Positions 11,910-27,811 of a stretch of DNA of 32,000 nt are shown here, piece by piece (position 1 is the first letter of the stretch; every line of letters begins with the position of its first letter). A program made the position numbers and the translations under genes. A model generated the notes under the pieces. It was given only the letters and a program-made list of their open reading frames with translations. It made no database searches and was not told where the DNA came from. The stretch is from Candidatus Arthromitus sp. SFB-mouse-Japan (GTDB lineage Bacteria; Bacillota; Clostridia; Clostridiales; Clostridiaceae), in assembly GCF_000270205.1 (NCBI RefSeq), contig NC_015913.1:1350001-1382000 (forward strand), in the 5' to 3' direction.

Positions 11910-11985
11910 TGGCAGGGGTAGCAGGAGTCGAACCCGCAACCAACGGTTTTGGAGACCGCTACTCTACCAATTGAGCTATACCCCT
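11910..11985 (-). tRNA. trnW: tRNA-Trp (anticodon CCA), CCA 3' end encoded
   Basis: Reverse complement AGGGGTATAGCTCAATTGGTAGAGTAGCGGTCTCCAAAACCGTTGGTTGCGGGTTCGACTCCTGCTACCCCTGCCA. It folds as a cloverleaf with anticodon loop CU-CCA-AA and a GGTTCGA T-loop. Confidence 0.95.
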
Positions 11986-16512: not shown

Positions 16513-17626
16513 TTACTTTTCTCTATCAATAGAGCCTTTTATATGATTTTTTATAAATATATCAATATCTCCATCAAGCACCTTATTTATATCTGATATT
16601 TCAACATTCATTCTATGATCCTTAACAAGTGTATATGGATGCATAACATATGACCTTATTTGACTCCCAAATCCAATTTCTTTTAGATCACCCGTTAAAT
16701 CCTCAAGTTTCTCCTTATGGGTTCTATCCTTAAGTTCAATCAATTTAGATACTAGCATTTTCATCGCAGTTTCCTTATTTGATAACTGACTCCTCTCATT
16801 TTGACATTGAACAACTATACCTGTCTTTAAATGAGTTATTCTAACTGCAGACTCCGTTTTATTGACATGCTGTCCCCCTGCGCCACTAGCCCTATATGTA
16901 TCAATTTTAAGTTCACTCTCATTTATCTTAACTTCCTTTATATTCTGTATCTCTGGTAAAATCTCGACAGATGCAAAAGATGTTTGTCTTTTACCATTAG
17001 CATTAAAAGGGGAAATTCTAACAAGTCTATGTATGCCTCTTTCCCCCTTCATATAACCATAAGCATACTCACCTTCAATTTTTATAGTAGCACTTTTTAT
17101 TCCTGCTTCATCACCTATAGTGTACTCAATAACATTTAAAGTAAATTTATTTTCCTCTCCCCATCTCATATACATTCTAAAAAGCATCTCACTCCAGTCT
17201 TGAGCATCAACTCCACCAGCACCAGCATGAATAGTTAAAAAAGCATTATTTTTATCATACTCACCGTTTAAAATAGTCCTAATACTAAGATTATCTATAA
17301 GATCTTTAAATTTATAAAAATCATCTTTAAATATCTTTATATATTCCTCATCATTATCATCCTTAATAAGCTCTAACGACTCTAATAAATATTCATAATC
17401 TTTAGATAAATTATTTACTTCGTCTATTCTATCTTTTAAACTCTTGCTAATCCTAACTATTCTAGTACTATTTTCAACATCGTCCCAAAATTTAGTATCC
17501 TCCATCATAATAGAATACTCTTCAAGTTTCTTATTTAAATTATCTAAGTCAAAGAAACCCCCTTATAACATCAAAATTCTCCTTTATATCCTTGAGCTCA
17601 CTCTTAAAATATTGATAATCAAACAT
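16513..17626 (-). CDS. prfB: Peptide chain release factor 2, expressed through a programmed +1 frameshift
   Basis: Frame 0 runs 17626..17552 (MFDYQYFKSELKDIKENFDVIRGFL) and ends in CTT TGA C. Frame +1 runs 17550..16513 and continues DLDNLNKKLEEYSIMMEDTKFW...SGAGGQHVNKTESAV (GGQ motif). GAGGAG RBS precedes the ATG at 17626. Total is 370 aa. Confidence 0.9.
17548..17563 (-). other. RF2 autoregulatory +1 frameshift cassette
   Basis: The minus strand reads AGG GGG TTT CTT TGA C. This is an internal SD-like AGGGGG, the slippery CUU, an in-frame UGA and a following C, the same layout as the classical prfB site. Confidence 0.85.
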
Positions 17627-20179: not shown

Positions 20180-20285
20180 TAATTTTCATCCTCACACTAC
20201 ACTAACACTTATAATTATATTATCTTAATTTTATATTAAAATTAAACATATAATTTATTTTTTTATTCTATATGCTTAATAAACA

Positions 20286-20315
20286 GGTTAAGGTGTTCAA
20301 TTGAACACCTTAACC
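20286..20315 (-). terminator. Intrinsic terminator after hpf
   Basis: 13-bp perfect stem ggttaaggtgttc / gaacaccttaacc with loop AATT, 6 nt after the hpf stop. A U-rich tail follows on the minus strand. Confidence 0.65.
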
Positions 20316-20320
20316 CAAAA

Positions 20321-20854
20321 TTAATATTCTGCTTCTATAAGTCCATAATTACCAGATTTTCTCCTATATAACACATTAACATCATTCGTCTCTGCATTGA
20401 TAAAAACATAAAAATCATGTCCAATAAGTTCCATTTGGAGTATTGCCTCATCCTTATACATAGGCTTAATTGGAAACTTTTTAACTTTTATAATAATATC
20501 GTCTTCTAAATCATCATTTTCTATATTATCAAGTAATATATCCAAACTTCTTATATCTTTATTACTATATTTCTTAACAAGCTTAGTCTTTTGTCTGCGA
20601 ATTTGCTTATATAATTTATCTACAACTAAATCTATAGCAATATACAAATCACTATTTCTCTCCTGAGCTCTTAAATATATACCATTAAATAAAATACCAA
20701 CTTCTATTATTTGATTATTCTTTTCAACGCTCAGAGTAACGTGGGCTTCTAATTCTTGTGAAAAATAATTATCTAATTTAGATAATTTTTTATTTATAGC
20801 ATCTTCCAACGCACGAGTAACTTCTATATTCTTACCATGAATAACAATTTTCAT
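20321..20854 (-). CDS. hpf: Ribosome hibernation promoting factor, long form (HPF/RaiA/YvyD family)
   Basis: MKIVIHGKNIEVTRALEDAINKKLSKLDNYF..., followed by a C-terminal dimerisation-type domain (KPMYKDEAILQMELIGHDFYVFINAETNDVNVLYRRKSGNYGLIE). I prefer the ATG at 20854 to the TTG at 20863. Confidence 0.9.
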   Translation of the reverse strand: MKIVIHGKNIEVTRALEDAINKKLSKLDNYFSQELEAHVTLSVEKNNQIIEVGILFNGIYLRAQERNSDLYIAIDLVVDKLYKQIRRQKTKLVKKYSNKDIRSLDILLDNIENDDLEDDIIIKVKKFPIKPMYKDEAILQMELIGHDFYVFINAETNDVNVLYRRKSGNYGLIEAEY

Positions 20855-20879
20855 TAACCTCAAGCCCCTTTATTTTAAA

Positions 20880-21090
20880 ATTAAAGCTAGTTGACCTGGT
20901 CTTTTACCCCACACTCGCCTGCTGGAGCTTTCGCTAATAAAAACTAATTCCTCACTACTAACCCTCTCATACATAAATGGCAGGTCTTACTCCTAAGCCG
21001 CACCATGATAATTAAAAATCTATTTTTAATTTACGTGGATCGTTTCGCCTGCGACTGGCATCGATTTTCAACCACAAACCTAGCTTTACT
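20880..21090 (-). ncRNA. Structured RNA in the comFC-hpf spacer, candidate raiA-motif RNA
   Basis: There is no ORF. My hand count gives about 42% G+C over 20881-21090, against strongly AT-rich flanks. A 9-bp closing helix joins 21080-21088 and 20882-20890 (UAAAGCUAG/CUAGCUUUA). Internal hairpins include a GNRA-capped AGC-GAAA-GCU at 20926-20935 and an AU hairpin at 21011-21030. A possible 6-bp long-range pair links GACCUG (20981-20986) with CAGGUC (20893-20898). The class assignment rests on the genomic context I remember for raiA-motif RNAs (between comFC and raiA/hpf), not on a covariance-model score. Confidence 0.6.
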
Positions 21091-21092
21091 AT

Positions 21093-21122
21093 ATTTTAAA
21101 TTAAAGTTTTCGCAATTGTCAA
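21093..21122 (-). promoter_or_regulatory. Near-consensus sigma-A promoter driving the spacer RNA/hpf
   Basis: Minus strand: TTGACA (21122-21117), 18-nt spacer, TAAAAT (21098-21093). The -10 overlaps the comFC stop codon. The predicted start near 21086-21088 coincides with the first base of the RNA closing helix. Confidence 0.55.
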
Positions 21123-21755
21123 TACACTTAAATCCATTTCAAATGTACTTTTTTTAATAATCCCGCAAACCTCATTTAAAGTACTATAAGTTGTCGCTAC
21201 ATCATCTATAATTAAAACTTTCTTATTCCTTAACATACTCAAATCTACATGCTTATTTATAAAAAATTTATCCTTTATATTAACTGTTCTCTCCGATATG
21301 TCTAACTTTTTTTGATCATGTTTTTTACCAATACAATATAAAAGCTTAATATACGGTATATCTAAACTCTTACTTAACGTCTTAGTCAAATAATGACTCT
21401 GATCAAACCCTTCTTTTTTAATCTTGTTCCTATCTCTAGGAACATAACTCAAATAATCTATTTTGATATTTAACTTCTTAATATAAGAGTTTAAAATAAT
21501 ACTCAAATACTCACCAGACCTAAAATCTTTATGTATTTTAAAATTGTATATTATATTTTTCATAGTGCCAAAATAATAGCAAGCATTATATGCATGAAAA
21601 TCATTAAAATCAACTCTATTAAAATCCTCATTAAACTTAATATCCCGCATACATTCGTGACAAATAAATTTATCATCTATTTTTTCATAACAACTTACAC
21701 ACAAATTTAAATTAGGATAAATCAAATCTAATATTTTCTTACTCCACTTTCCCAA
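21096..21755 (-). CDS. comFC: ComFC/ComF-family protein (N-terminal Cys4 finger plus phosphoribosyltransferase-type domain)
   Basis: CVSC...CHEC at the N-terminus and the PRT-type loop VLIIDDVATTYSTL near the C-terminus. It sits in the conserved position upstream of hpf. Confidence 0.8.
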   Translation of the reverse strand: MGKWSKKILDLIYPNLNLCVSCYEKIDDKFICHECMRDIKFNEDFNRVDFNDFHAYNACYYFGTMKNIIYNFKIHKDFRSGEYLSIILNSYIKKLNIKIDYLSYVPRDRNKIKKEGFDQSHYLTKTLSKSLDIPYIKLLYCIGKKHDQKKLDISERTVNIKDKFFINKHVDLSMLRNKKVLIIDDVATTYSTLNEVCGIIKKSTFEMDLSVLTIAKTLI

Positions 21756-22621
21756 AGTTTCTTATTATAACTCCTTGAAATTACTTTTGCCATAATTATT
21801 TCTATATTTTCATAATTAGATACAAAAATAATTTCATTTTTACGATTTGTTAAAAATTTACACATCCCACATATAGTAAGTAAACTTTTATAATTAAATT
21901 TACTGCTACAAGCAAAAAACACTATTATGTTAAAATTATTATACATGGGATTATCAACTATAAAATTATATAATTCTAAAAGATACTCACTAGTTGTCAA
22001 ATATATATAATATCCATCATTAATTCTATTTACAAAATCATTAAAAGATTTAAATTCATTATACATATATATCTTCTTAATCTTAGGAAATAGTAAACTA
22101 TATTTCCTCATATATTTACTTACATTGAAACATGATTTATCATCTTTAGTAATAAGTATAACCTTTGTTTTATTAAGCATAAACCACTTTAAAAATTCAA
22201 ATACGACATGTGGCATATCTTCATTTAAATTTATTTTAGTTTGTATACTCCTAGGTTCTTTAAATAAACTCAAATCTTCGTTCATTTCATACAATACTTT
22301 ATCCTTAAACATCTTCTTCATACTTATTATAATCTTTTTACTTATACGTATGTCTTCAACATATTCTCTTATAAAATAATCATCAACTGAAGATATTCCT
22401 GTCACATCATCTACAATTAATAAATCAAATTGATTTCTTCTATCTATATTTAAAAATGTACTTAAAAAAACTATAGAATCTACATCAACTCTTTTACTCA
22501 ATAAAAATTTCTTCACGCATTCCTCATTATGAGTTATATACAATATTTTCTTATTGCTACTTAAAAGATTATTTATTAATAAAATTATACTCGATAAATT
22601 ATAAAATGGATGAGATACCAA
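21728..22621 (-). CDS. ComFA-like protein lacking the N-terminal region and the helicase ATPase motifs (possible relic)
   Basis: It is collinear with the helicase core of B. subtilis ComFA as I recall it: NKKILYITHNEECVKKF ~ LRVCIATPRTDVVLEL; FDLLIVDDV ~ DVMIIDEVD; YIYLTTSEYLLE ~ LLITTTILERG; LLTICGMCK ~ VQIAGRTGR. There is no GxxxxGK[ST], DE is replaced by DD, and the motif VI arginines are gone. It is only 297 aa from a TTG. The frame is open upstream to the recD2 stop with no ATG. It overlaps comFC by 28 nt. Confidence 0.5.
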   Translation of the reverse strand: MVSHPFYNLSSIILLINNLLSSNKKILYITHNEECVKKFLLSKRVDVDSIVFLSTFLNIDRRNQFDLLIVDDVTGISSVDDYFIREYVEDIRISKKIIISMKKMFKDKVLYEMNEDLSLFKEPRSIQTKINLNEDMPHVVFEFLKWFMLNKTKVILITKDDKSCFNVSKYMRKYSLLFPKIKKIYMYNEFKSFNDFVNRINDGYYIYLTTSEYLLELYNFIVDNPMYNNFNIIVFFACSSKFNYKSLLTICGMCKFLTNRKNEIIFVSNYENIEIIMAKVISRSYNKKLWESGVRKY

Positions 22622-25019: not shown

Positions 25020-25049
25020 TTGACACGCATACTCTGATGAAATTAAAAT
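25020..25049 (+). promoter_or_regulatory. Candidate sigma-A promoter for nagA
   Basis: TTGACA (25020-25025), 18-nt spacer, TAAAAT (25044-25049), about 22 nt upstream of the TTG start and its AAGGAG RBS. Confidence 0.4.
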
Positions 25050-25071: not shown

Positions 25072-26217
25072 TTGTTAATAAAAAATGTTAAATTGATATT
25101 TACTGATTCAATTGTTCCTGGAAGTGTAGTTATACAAAACGGCAAAATATACAAAATATTTTTAAACCACAATCCAAGATATGAAGGTGAAATTTTAGAT
25201 GGTGAAGGACTATACCTATCTCCTGGATTTATAGATATTCATATACATGGTGCAAGTAACCACGATACTATGGATGCATCTTATGAAGGTATTATAGAGA
25301 TATCCAATACTTTATTGAAACACGGTGTAACATCATTTCTTCCAACTACTATGACATGTTCAAAAGAAGATATAAGAAATGCTCTTAAAAATATATATCA
25401 AATAATCAAAGACAATACATCACCTAACAACATACTAGGTGTTCATTTAGAAGGACCTTTTATTAGTAAGGAAAGGATCGGTGCACAAAATCCAGAATTT
25501 TTGTTAGAACCATCTATAGATAATTTCAAAGAAATAGTTGAAGATTATGAAGAAATTATAAAAATCGTAACTTTAGCTCCCGAAATTGAAGGAGCATCGA
25601 ATTTAATTAAATATTTAAACGATAAAAAGATAGTCGCATCAATAGGTCACACTAATGCAACATATGAAGAAGCTCTATGTAGCATTAAAAATGGTATATC
25701 TCATGCAACTCATCTCTTCAATGCAATGACTCCATTTACTCATAGAAGCCCTGGAGTTGTAGGTGCAATATTAAATTCAAATATTACAGCTGAATGTATT
25801 TTAGATGGAATACATATCCATTATGCCGCACTAGACATGGCAATAAAAATTAAATCAAATAATAAAATAGTACTAATAACAGATGCTATGAGAGCATGCT
25901 GTATGAAAGATGGAAACTACACATTAGGAGGTCAAAATGTTATAGTTAAAGATTCTAATGCAAGACTTGAAAATGGTTCTCTTGCAGGATCGGTATTAAC
26001 ATTAAACAAAGCAGTATATAATGTCAAAAATAACTTAAACATCCCTCTTAATGAAATAATAAAACTTGTTACCATAAATCCATCAAAAATATGTAAAACT
26101 CAATTAACTAAAGGACTCATAAAAGAAGGATATGATGCAGATCTAGTATTATTTGATGAAGACATAAATATAAAACACGTATTTGTTAATGGGAATAAAA
26201 AAGAAGGTATTAGCTAA
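25072..26217 (+). CDS. nagA: N-acetylglucosamine-6-phosphate deacetylase
   Basis: Amidohydrolase motifs [34 protein letters not shown] and VLITDAM. TTG start with AAGGAG 9 nt upstream. Confidence 0.9.
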
Positions 26218-27483: not shown

Positions 27484-27559
27484 TGGAGCTGGCAATAGGA
27501 CTTGAACCCACAACCTGCTGATTACAAGTCAGCTGCTCTACCAATTGAGCTATGCCAGC
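27484..27559 (-). tRNA. trnT: tRNA-Thr (anticodon UGU), copy 2 in transcription order, CCA encoded
   Basis: Reverse complement GCTGGCATAGCTCAATTGGTAGAGCAGCTGACTTGTAATCAGCAGGTTGTGGGTTCAAGTCCTATTGCCAGCTCCA, with anticodon loop CU-TGT-AA. Confidence 0.95.
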
Positions 27560-27562
27560 AAA

Positions 27563-27638
27563 TGGTGGGCACAACAGGGATCGAACCTGTGACCTCCTGC
27601 TTGTAAGGCAGATGCTCTCCCAGCTGAGCTATGCGCCC
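27563..27638 (-). tRNA. trnV: tRNA-Val (anticodon UAC), CCA encoded
   Basis: Reverse complement GGGCGCATAGCTCAGCTGGGAGAGCATCTGCCTTACAAGCAGGAGGTCACAGGTTCGATCCCTGTTGTGCCCACCA, with anticodon loop CU-TAC-AA. Confidence 0.95.
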
Positions 27639-27642
27639 TTAA

Positions 27643-27728
27643 TGGTGGAGGAAGCTGGATTCGAACCAGCGAAGTCGAAAGACAACAGATTTACAGTCTG
27701 CCCCCTTTGGCCACTCGGGAATTCCTCC
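27643..27728 (-). tRNA. trnY: tRNA-Tyr (anticodon GUA), long variable arm, CCA encoded
   Basis: Reverse complement GGAGGAATTCCCGAGTGGCCAAAGGGGGCAGACTGTAAATCTGTTGTCTTTCGACTTCGCTGGTTCGAATCCAGCTTCCTCCACCA (86 nt), with anticodon loop CU-GTA-AA. Confidence 0.95.
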
Positions 27729-27735
27729 ATGTTAC

Positions 27736-27811
27736 TGGAGCTGGCAATAGGACTTGAACCCACAACCTGCTGATTACAAGTCAGCTGCTCTACCAATTGA
27801 GCTATGCCAGC
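27736..27811 (-). tRNA. trnT: tRNA-Thr (anticodon UGU), copy 1 in transcription order, identical to 27484..27559
   Basis: All 76 nt are the same as the other tRNA-Thr copy. Confidence 0.95.

Follow-up and report, generated by a model that had tools for sequence, protein, structure and literature searches.

The stretch of DNA analysed here, 32,000 nucleotides (nt) of contig NC_015913.1 (the window), comes from the mouse segmented filamentous bacterium (SFB) Candidatus Arthromitus sp. SFB-mouse, a member of the Clostridiaceae. Between its comFC and hpf genes, on the minus strand, lies a 207-nt structured RNA of the raiA family, also called ModT. The original prediction, made from the letters alone, had placed the RNA of this spacer in the raiA class, and the assignment is borne out by a full-length match to the Rfam model RF03072, by a count of covarying pairs, by synteny and by a conserved promoter. 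Our overall reading, which we hold to be very probable as a whole, is that this RNA is the raiA/ModT of mouse SFB, that it stands behind its conserved promoter and acts in trans as a folded RNA or ribonucleoprotein (RNP), and that it is co-transcribed with hpf. The element in itself is an ordinary member of a kind of RNA already known, one that a standard Rfam model finds, and it leads beyond the textbook at two points only: the fusion of raiA to hpf in the SFB clade and the loss of one base pair in the second pseudoknot (PK2) of the fold.

In a search with the Rfam 15 models, the raiA RNA (RF03072) was the only match in the whole window apart from tRNAs. It extends from 21088 to 20882 (minus strand, as for all features below unless a strand is given), with a score of 193 bits, about twice the gathering score of 101.3, and an E-value of 1e-49; it spans model positions 1-209 of 209, is not truncated, and retains 79 of the 85 upper-case positions of the consensus. 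It belongs to the subtype that lacks P2 and carries P8, like the Clostridium acetobutylicum RNA. The genomic setting is also that of the family. The raiA motif, discovered by Weinberg 2017 (PMC5737381) and studied further by Soares 2024 (PMC10861870), occurs in Bacillota or Actinomycetota, downstream of comFC in 74% and upstream of raiA/hpf in 66% (PMC10861870). The window, from a member of the Bacillota, agrees with these statistics, having a gene for a ComF-family protein upstream of the RNA, the gene for the hibernation-promoting factor (HPF) downstream, and secA and prfB further downstream. A literature search combining SFB and raiA returned irrelevant matches only.

The secondary structure was transferred to the RNA of the window from the cryo-electron microscopy (cryo-EM) model of He et al. 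(PMC12968392), and pairs were counted on an alignment of 11 RNAs, comprising the window, three sister species and seven more distant taxa whose loci were found through HPF homology. In this alignment 97.3% of cells pair, whereas a shift of the 3' partners by one to three columns leaves 30-42%; of the 47 pairs, 23 have changed on both sides, and none of 500 shuffles reached the observed covariation score. As mapped from its letters, the RNA fits the family architecture of P1a-c, a GAA(A) turn, a kinked P3a/P3b, two pseudoknots (PK1 and PK2) and P4 to P8, with a predicted sarcin-ricin loop in P8 and no P2. The closing helix of the original prediction and, among its internal stems, AUCG/CGAU are supported by covariation in homologous spacers, and every position it had given carries the letters listed there.

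The 5' strands of P1 occupy 21071-21088, with P1a at 21088-21080, a GU bulge at 21079-21078, P1b at 21077-21075 and P1c at 21074-21071; the 3' strands occupy 20882-20900, with P1c at 20900-20897, a GGU bulge at 20896-20894, P1b at 20893-20891 and P1a at 20890-20882. P1a is the 9-bp closing helix that had been read from the sequence, UAAAGCUAG (21088-21080) being perfectly complementary to CUAGCUUUA (20890-20882), and all nine of its pairs change on both sides among the 11 RNAs. P1b has U-A in place of the consensus C-G, the change being compensated. P1c is nearly invariant (one unpaired cell) and so uninformative for covariation, and the GGU bulge is the same in all 11 RNAs. After P1c comes the tetraloop-like U-GAA-A turn (21070-21066), in which U19-G20-A21-A22-A23 are all present. 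The next hairpin (21039-21065) consists of P3a (21065-21062 with 21042-21039), an A-rich internal loop and P3b (21059-21057 with 21049-21047), whose apical loop holds the 5' strand of PK1. The AUCG/CGAU stem noted earlier proves to be P3a, and its pairs covary, from G-C to C-G in four of the 11 RNAs. PK1 itself joins GUCGCA (21055-21050) to UGCGGC (20997-21002); all six pairs are kept in every RNA, five of them with changes on both sides (GUCGCA/UGCGGC, GCUAUG/CAUAGU, GACGAG/CUCGUC). Pairing is complete (100% of cells) in P3a, P3b and PK1.

P4 (20909-21038) pairs CCACG (21038-21034) with UGUGG (20913-20909) and encloses P5, the pseudoknot linker and P6-P8. It had likewise been recognised as a stem, and it is invariant in the 11 RNAs, so it says nothing about covariation. 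P5 (21010-21031) is the A-U hairpin, peripheral in the solved structure (PMC12968392) and variable in sequence within the family. The hairpin predicted at 21011-21030 is therefore real, but it has 8 bp there and reaches the 9 bp claimed, around a 4-nt loop, only if extended to RNA positions 58-79. Between PK1 and P6 lies an exposed 10-nt linker (20987-20996) that reads UUAGGAGUAA; relative to the family consensus UUAGA(C/A)GUAA it carries a single substitution, A to G at 20992, and its positions 5-6 vary among the four closest species. This linker has been proposed as a binding site for KhpA-KhpB (PMC12968392). P6 (20984-20980 with 20922-20918, overall 20918-20984) encloses P7 (20979-20968) and P8 (20964-20925). 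In P8 a predicted sarcin-ricin/E-loop, UAGUA/GAAA, is flanked by GGGU/GCUC and GU/GC; the motif has been described in PMC12968392 and PMC13085918, and 68% of raiA family members have the P6-P8 domain with this loop.

Three structural elements read from the single sequence gave way under this comparison. The supposed GNRA-capped hairpin at 20926-20935 is present as AGC-GAAA-GCU, but these letters are the 3' strand of the P8 E-loop, with GAA opposite UAGUA, and as a hairpin its third pair would be broken in four of the seven P8-bearing RNAs, one of which also loses the first. The 6-bp pseudoknot suggested between 20981-20986 and 20893-20898 joins segments, GACCUG and CAGGUC, that are indeed complementary, but relatives do not maintain the pairing: the 5' side is altered in five of the 11 RNAs without compensation and the 3' segment is never altered. 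Two of the changes in GACCUG fall at P6 positions (loci L001 and L053) and are exactly compensated within P6. The actual pseudoknots are PK1 (21055-21050 with 21002-20997) and PK2, both of which were missing from the original prediction. The repeated octamer GCAGGCGA does occur at 21052-21045 and 20922-20915, with no third copy in the window, but it is no functional repeat, both copies being intact in only four of the 11 RNAs; it is a by-product of two conserved segments.

SFB are immune-modulating gut symbionts with a sporulating, differentiating life cycle, and their genome is small, about 1.6 Mb. That a well-conserved raiA has been retained in so small a genome argues that the RNA is not dispensable. 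Three sister species, a Clostridiales metagenome-assembled genome, Ca. Dwaynia gallinarum and an uncultured Ca. Arthromitus, carry raiA at the same locus with scores of 191-201 bits, and most positions of the RNA are invariant across the four species of the clade, whose HPF proteins are only 75-78% identical. Within mouse SFB, the HPF protein is identical in AP012209.1 (GCA_000284435.1) and CP008713.1 (GCA_000709435.1), and the 6.5 kb around hpf are 99.8-99.9% identical in DNA between these and the window. When the 207-nt RNA was compared with six SFB assemblies, one was identical and the others differed only at the dinucleotide 20973-20972, in the apical loop of P7, which is UG in the window and GA or GG elsewhere. 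These two positions make up two of the five to six differences per 6.5 kb for Japan-like strains, and the P7 apical loop is the least constrained part of the raiA fold. The same conservation bears on the idea that in this reduced genome the trans function has been lost and the RNA serves mainly as a 5'-terminal stabiliser of the hpf mRNA. The lack of a promoter of its own for hpf and the very stable 5' fold formed by the RNA would fit such a role, but a stabiliser would not be expected to retain 79 of 85 family-invariant positions, the exposed linker included, nor to be nearly invariant across four species, and we regard this explanation as extremely improbable.

The sigma-A-type promoter (21093-21122) consists of a -35 element TTGACA (21122-21117), an 18-nt spacer and a -10 element TAAAAT (21098-21093). 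It matches the consensus at 11 of 12 positions and is the top promoter-like site in 20200-21900. As the original prediction had noticed, it overlaps the comFC stop, the TAA of the -10 element being the stop codon itself (21098-21096); the final comFC codons are overlapped as well. Across the four species of the clade the 30-nt element is invariant except for one synonymous A/G change, whereas the adjacent comFC coding sequence upstream diverges freely; this argues for selection on the promoter itself. The pattern TTGACA-N16-18-TANAAT occurs three times in the window, against 0.31 expected. The two further exact sites are at 21973-22000, inside a 297-amino-acid open reading frame (ORF), and at 25020-25049 on the plus strand, just upstream of the plus-strand ORF 25072-26217.

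At its 3' side the RNA runs directly towards hpf (20321-20854), which encodes a long-form ribosome hibernation-promoting factor of 177 amino acids (PF02482, PF16321, TIGR00741). The 27-nt junction (20855-20881) holds a U-rich tract directly after P1a and then the Shine-Dalgarno sequence AAGGGG (20870-20865); it has neither a hairpin nor a promoter. The earlier observation that no terminator separates the RNA from the hpf ribosome-binding site (RBS) stands, the only one on the minus strand being the intrinsic terminator that follows hpf (20317-20284, 15-bp stem and T-rich tail) and would close the raiA-hpf unit. No promoter-like site that could serve hpf was found on the minus strand between 21088 and 20854, either within the RNA or beyond it. 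TAAAAT at 20877-20872 was considered as an hpf -10 element and rejected, as it has no -35 element and lies too near the Shine-Dalgarno sequence. The distance from the end of the RNA to the hpf ATG is 24-28 nt in all four members of the SFB clade. Since neither a terminator nor a promoter-like site lies in between, raiA and hpf are probably co-transcribed in this clade, and hpf would be expressed by read-through from the raiA promoter.

Other genomes arrange this junction in several ways. Among Bacillota loci, a canonical terminator directly after raiA is clear in two (L008 and L062), and a -10-like element (TGnTATAAT or similar) stands ahead of hpf in the gaps of three (L022, L024 and L030). 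We also examined 120 metagenomic contigs carrying the invariant 3' core of raiA. In 59 of these hpf lies downstream on the same strand, at estimated gaps ranging from 34 nt to more than 4 kb, with about 20 gaps below 100 nt. Where sequences were inspected, three low-GC gaps of 71-97 nt contain their own promoter; a -10-like element was seen upstream of hpf in contigs L088, L138 and L140, and the elements are mostly of the extended form TGnTAnAnT. Gaps of about 34-60 nt in high-GC contigs (L158, L091, L119 and L094; 66-71% G+C) have no AT-rich promoter-like element. These contigs rule out the notion that the tight junction is unique to SFB; it recurs outside the clade, probably in Actinomycetota, and this agrees with the remark that the motif is often situated in potential 5' untranslated regions (PMC5737381).

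Such junctions give some room to a reading in which the RNA is a cis-acting, riboswitch-like leader that responds to a ligand or protein and regulates hpf, either through read-through at P1 and the U-rich tract or through access to the RBS 11 nt downstream. Rfam release 15 types RF03072 as "Cis-reg; riboswitch", despite two genetic studies showing trans action; in the SFB clade a distance of 24-28 nt, free of terminator and promoter, lies between the RNA and the hpf ATG; junctions of 34-60 nt recur in the high-GC contigs; and the reactivity of ModT towards dimethyl sulphate in vivo shifts with growth phase (PMC11706538). Nevertheless, a copy in trans complements the deletion mutants of two species (PMC10861870; PMC11706538), many genomes have the RNA hundreds to thousands of nt away from hpf or beside other genes, and tests in vitro gave no evidence for small-molecule binding (PMC5737381). 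At the SFB junction, where hpf is 27 nt away, neither a terminator hairpin nor a conserved helix that sequesters the Shine-Dalgarno sequence was found, and no alternative pairing between P1 and the Shine-Dalgarno sequence is conserved among the four clade members. We therefore consider a cis-acting leader unlikely.

A fused raiA-hpf unit requires some way of forming a 3' end, and this could be taken to favour a ribozyme that cleaves itself or other RNAs and that would here release itself from the raiA-hpf precursor. Ribozymes are typically of this size, with a compact core and many unpaired nucleotides that do not vary, and both experimental groups have raised the idea. On the other hand, in-line probing found most linkages to be remarkably stable, cleavage activity is unreported in the raiA papers cited, and the 3' end of the short isoform in C. 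difficile has been assigned to transcription termination (PMC11706538). We find this explanation more unlikely still than that of a cis-acting leader.

What the preferred reading, a trans-acting folded RNA or RNP, would mean for SFB is drawn from the orthologues. Mutants that lack raiA enter stationary phase late and sporulate and aggregate less, and in two species a copy supplied in trans restores these traits (PMC10861870, PMC11706538). In C. difficile it is a rise in cyclic di-GMP (c-di-GMP) that mediates the reduced sporulation (PMC11706538). The fold is a compact pyramidal core from which P1, of conserved length, protrudes, and KhpA-KhpB binds the RNA in vitro with an affinity of about 2 micromolar, perhaps through the exposed linker (PMC12968392). 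The literature summary given with the original prediction was accurate but dated, as the action in trans, the link to c-di-GMP, the cryo-EM structures and the in vitro binding of KhpA-KhpB have since been published. The SFB copy keeps every core element, and on this ground we extend the same reading to it. By analogy with C. acetobutylicum and C. difficile, the raiA RNA of SFB would be made as an abundant, stable, discrete species and would act in trans, and not by base pairing with targets. It would probably serve as a folded platform for proteins, KhpA-KhpB on the UUAGGAGUAA linker being a candidate, and it may tune the passage from growth into stationary phase and sporulation, as in C. difficile through the level of c-di-GMP. 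One transcription event could yield either the mature RNA, whose 3' end would arise just after P1 by processing or at the U-rich tract, or a longer transcript in which raiA is read through into hpf as far as the 20317-20284 terminator; production of the hibernation factor would thereby be coupled to transcription of raiA.

A bolder version of this coupling can be imagined, in which raiA is an obligatory 5' part of the hpf transcript, both in the SFB clade and, independently, in certain high-GC lineages, and its fold, or the choice between 3'-end formation and read-through, sets the amount of hibernation factor. We think this doubtful. If true, raiA would gain a role in cis besides its role in trans, and its function would be tied directly to ribosome hibernation.

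Several points weigh against our reading. As to the fold, PK2 has lost one Watson-Crick pair. Its 3' strand (20904-20905) pairs with 21005-21004, and the U-A pair is kept while the G-C pair of the family is G.A here. The C at 20905 (RNA position 184) is replaced by A in the window and in two of the three sister species (L002 and L003), and is kept in the third (L001) and in all seven distant RNAs, that is, in eight of the 11. The partner shows no compensating change, AUGG being invariant. Because the pairs flanking PK2 in the solved structures are themselves G-A pairs (PMC12968392), the raiA fold may by analogy tolerate the G.A. Minimum free energy (MFE) folding of the single sequence, alone and with the hpf leader, found P1a and P1c and missed the pseudoknotted core; its z-scores are modest (-2.2 and -1.1) and the consensus fold was not reproduced, which is expected for a pseudoknotted RNA and adds no support. 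As to the transcript, the start site, 3' end and abundance of the RNA in SFB are inferred. The 5' end had been predicted to lie exactly at the closing helix; a start about 7 nt past TAAAAT would fall at about 21088-21085, which is at the edge of P1a or 1-3 nt inside it. As to the partner, the affinity of KhpA-KhpB is only in the low-micromolar range in vitro (PMC12968392), the earlier KhpB analyses of the C. difficile group revealed no binding of ModT (PMC11706538), and as of March 2026 the literature had established no biochemical activity for the raiA family.

The spacer itself stands out by its composition, as had been remarked, though the G+C content, estimated at about 42%, comes to 39.2% in the gap and 41.1% in the RNA, the window mean being 27.6%. 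Only 1.5% of 207-nt segments reach the G+C content of the RNA, and the rest of these are confined to three stretches, among them the one with four tRNA genes (27487-27811). This minus-strand cluster includes two identical genes (27487-27559 and 27739-27811), and a further tRNA gene lies isolated at 11913-11985 on the same strand. The length given for the gap, 232 nt, holds if hpf starts at the TTG at 20863; the hpf start common to all relatives, ATGAAAAT, corresponds to the ATG at 20854, and with this start the gap is 241 nt. That the gap is free of ORFs is true for anything credible, the sense strand having ORFs of 20-34 amino acids only and the antisense strand one of 50 amino acids at 21005-21157.

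Upstream, comFC (21096-21755) encodes a ComF-family, phosphoribosyltransferase-like protein (TIGR00201, E-value 9.8e-18, 189 of 190 profile positions) with weak matches to Pfam PF00156 and DZR_2. The 297-amino-acid ORF at 21728-22621 is SFBM_1268 of Candidatus Arthromitus sp. SFB-mouse-Japan; it lies between recD2 and comFC and overlaps the comFC start by 28 nt. In two other Clostridia comFC directly follows recD2. The ORF had been taken for a decayed comFA, but it is intact, and it is conserved, with 46-53% identity to counterparts in the three sister species, so it is no pseudogene. Just 27 homologues could be detected, all of them lacking a Pfam domain, and searches of Pfam, NCBIfam and PDB sequences returned nothing to indicate ComFA ancestry. 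Its AlphaFold2 model (mean pLDDT 83.7) resembles the two-lobe cores of superfamily 2 (SF2) helicases, namely flavivirus NS3, Snf2/ISWI, UvrB and the helicase domain of reverse gyrase, with query-normalised TM-scores mostly of 0.45-0.55 at 8-13% identity; the matches also include KaiC, with the best E-value, and SecA. Walker A is absent, its position reading LYITHNE, and two aspartates at the position of motif II are invariant. What remains of the earlier claim is a motif-degenerate, helicase-like predicted fold at the ComFA position, and judged by the model SFBM_1268 looks like a shortened, motif-degenerate ComFA-like protein conserved in the SFB clade. Further along the minus strand, prfB (16513-17626) carries the classical CTTTGAC +1 programmed frameshift site of release factor 2 at 17548-17554; the 331-amino-acid ORF starts after CTTTGAC, and the 370-amino-acid NCBI product starts near 17626.

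raiA/ModT is among the most widespread bacterial structured RNAs without a known biochemical function, and one more copy leaves that unchanged. The apparent natural fusion of raiA to hpf could, however, be used for testing whether the long-noted association of the two is functional, and the clade-specific loss of a PK2 base pair may help to define what the fold tolerates.

With respect to its possible mode of working, the closest analogues of raiA are two other structured bacterial RNAs that act in trans, 6S RNA, and OLE RNA with its protein partners. Both are abundant, stable, folded and linked to growth phase, and act through their shape and the proteins they bind and not through antisense pairing; they have no kinship with raiA in sequence or structure. 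Within the family, the raiA of C. acetobutylicum (cryo-EM, PMC12968392) resembles the SFB RNA in its subtype without P2, its P8 E-loop, its short P7 and the comFC gene upstream. The two are of similar length (207 nt in SFB, 204 nt in C. acetobutylicum), and the numbering of G10, G14 and U19-A23 is equal. The SFB RNA differs in having no terminator of its own, in the PK2 G.A in place of G-C, in the linker UUAGGAGUAA and in the P1b U-A in place of C-G, and the gene downstream is hpf, at 27 nt, where C. acetobutylicum has gntR. C. difficile ModT (PMC11706538) shares with it a single sigma-A promoter directly ahead of P1 and a G+C content well above the genome average (43-46% against 29% for ModT, 41% against 28% in SFB). 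The short isoform of ModT ends just past P1, as proposed here for SFB. In C. difficile, read-through as far as a downstream intrinsic terminator gives a 260-nt long isoform, after which comes a phosphotransferase system (PTS) antiterminator gene (PMC11706538), whereas in SFB the product of read-through would be the hpf mRNA itself.

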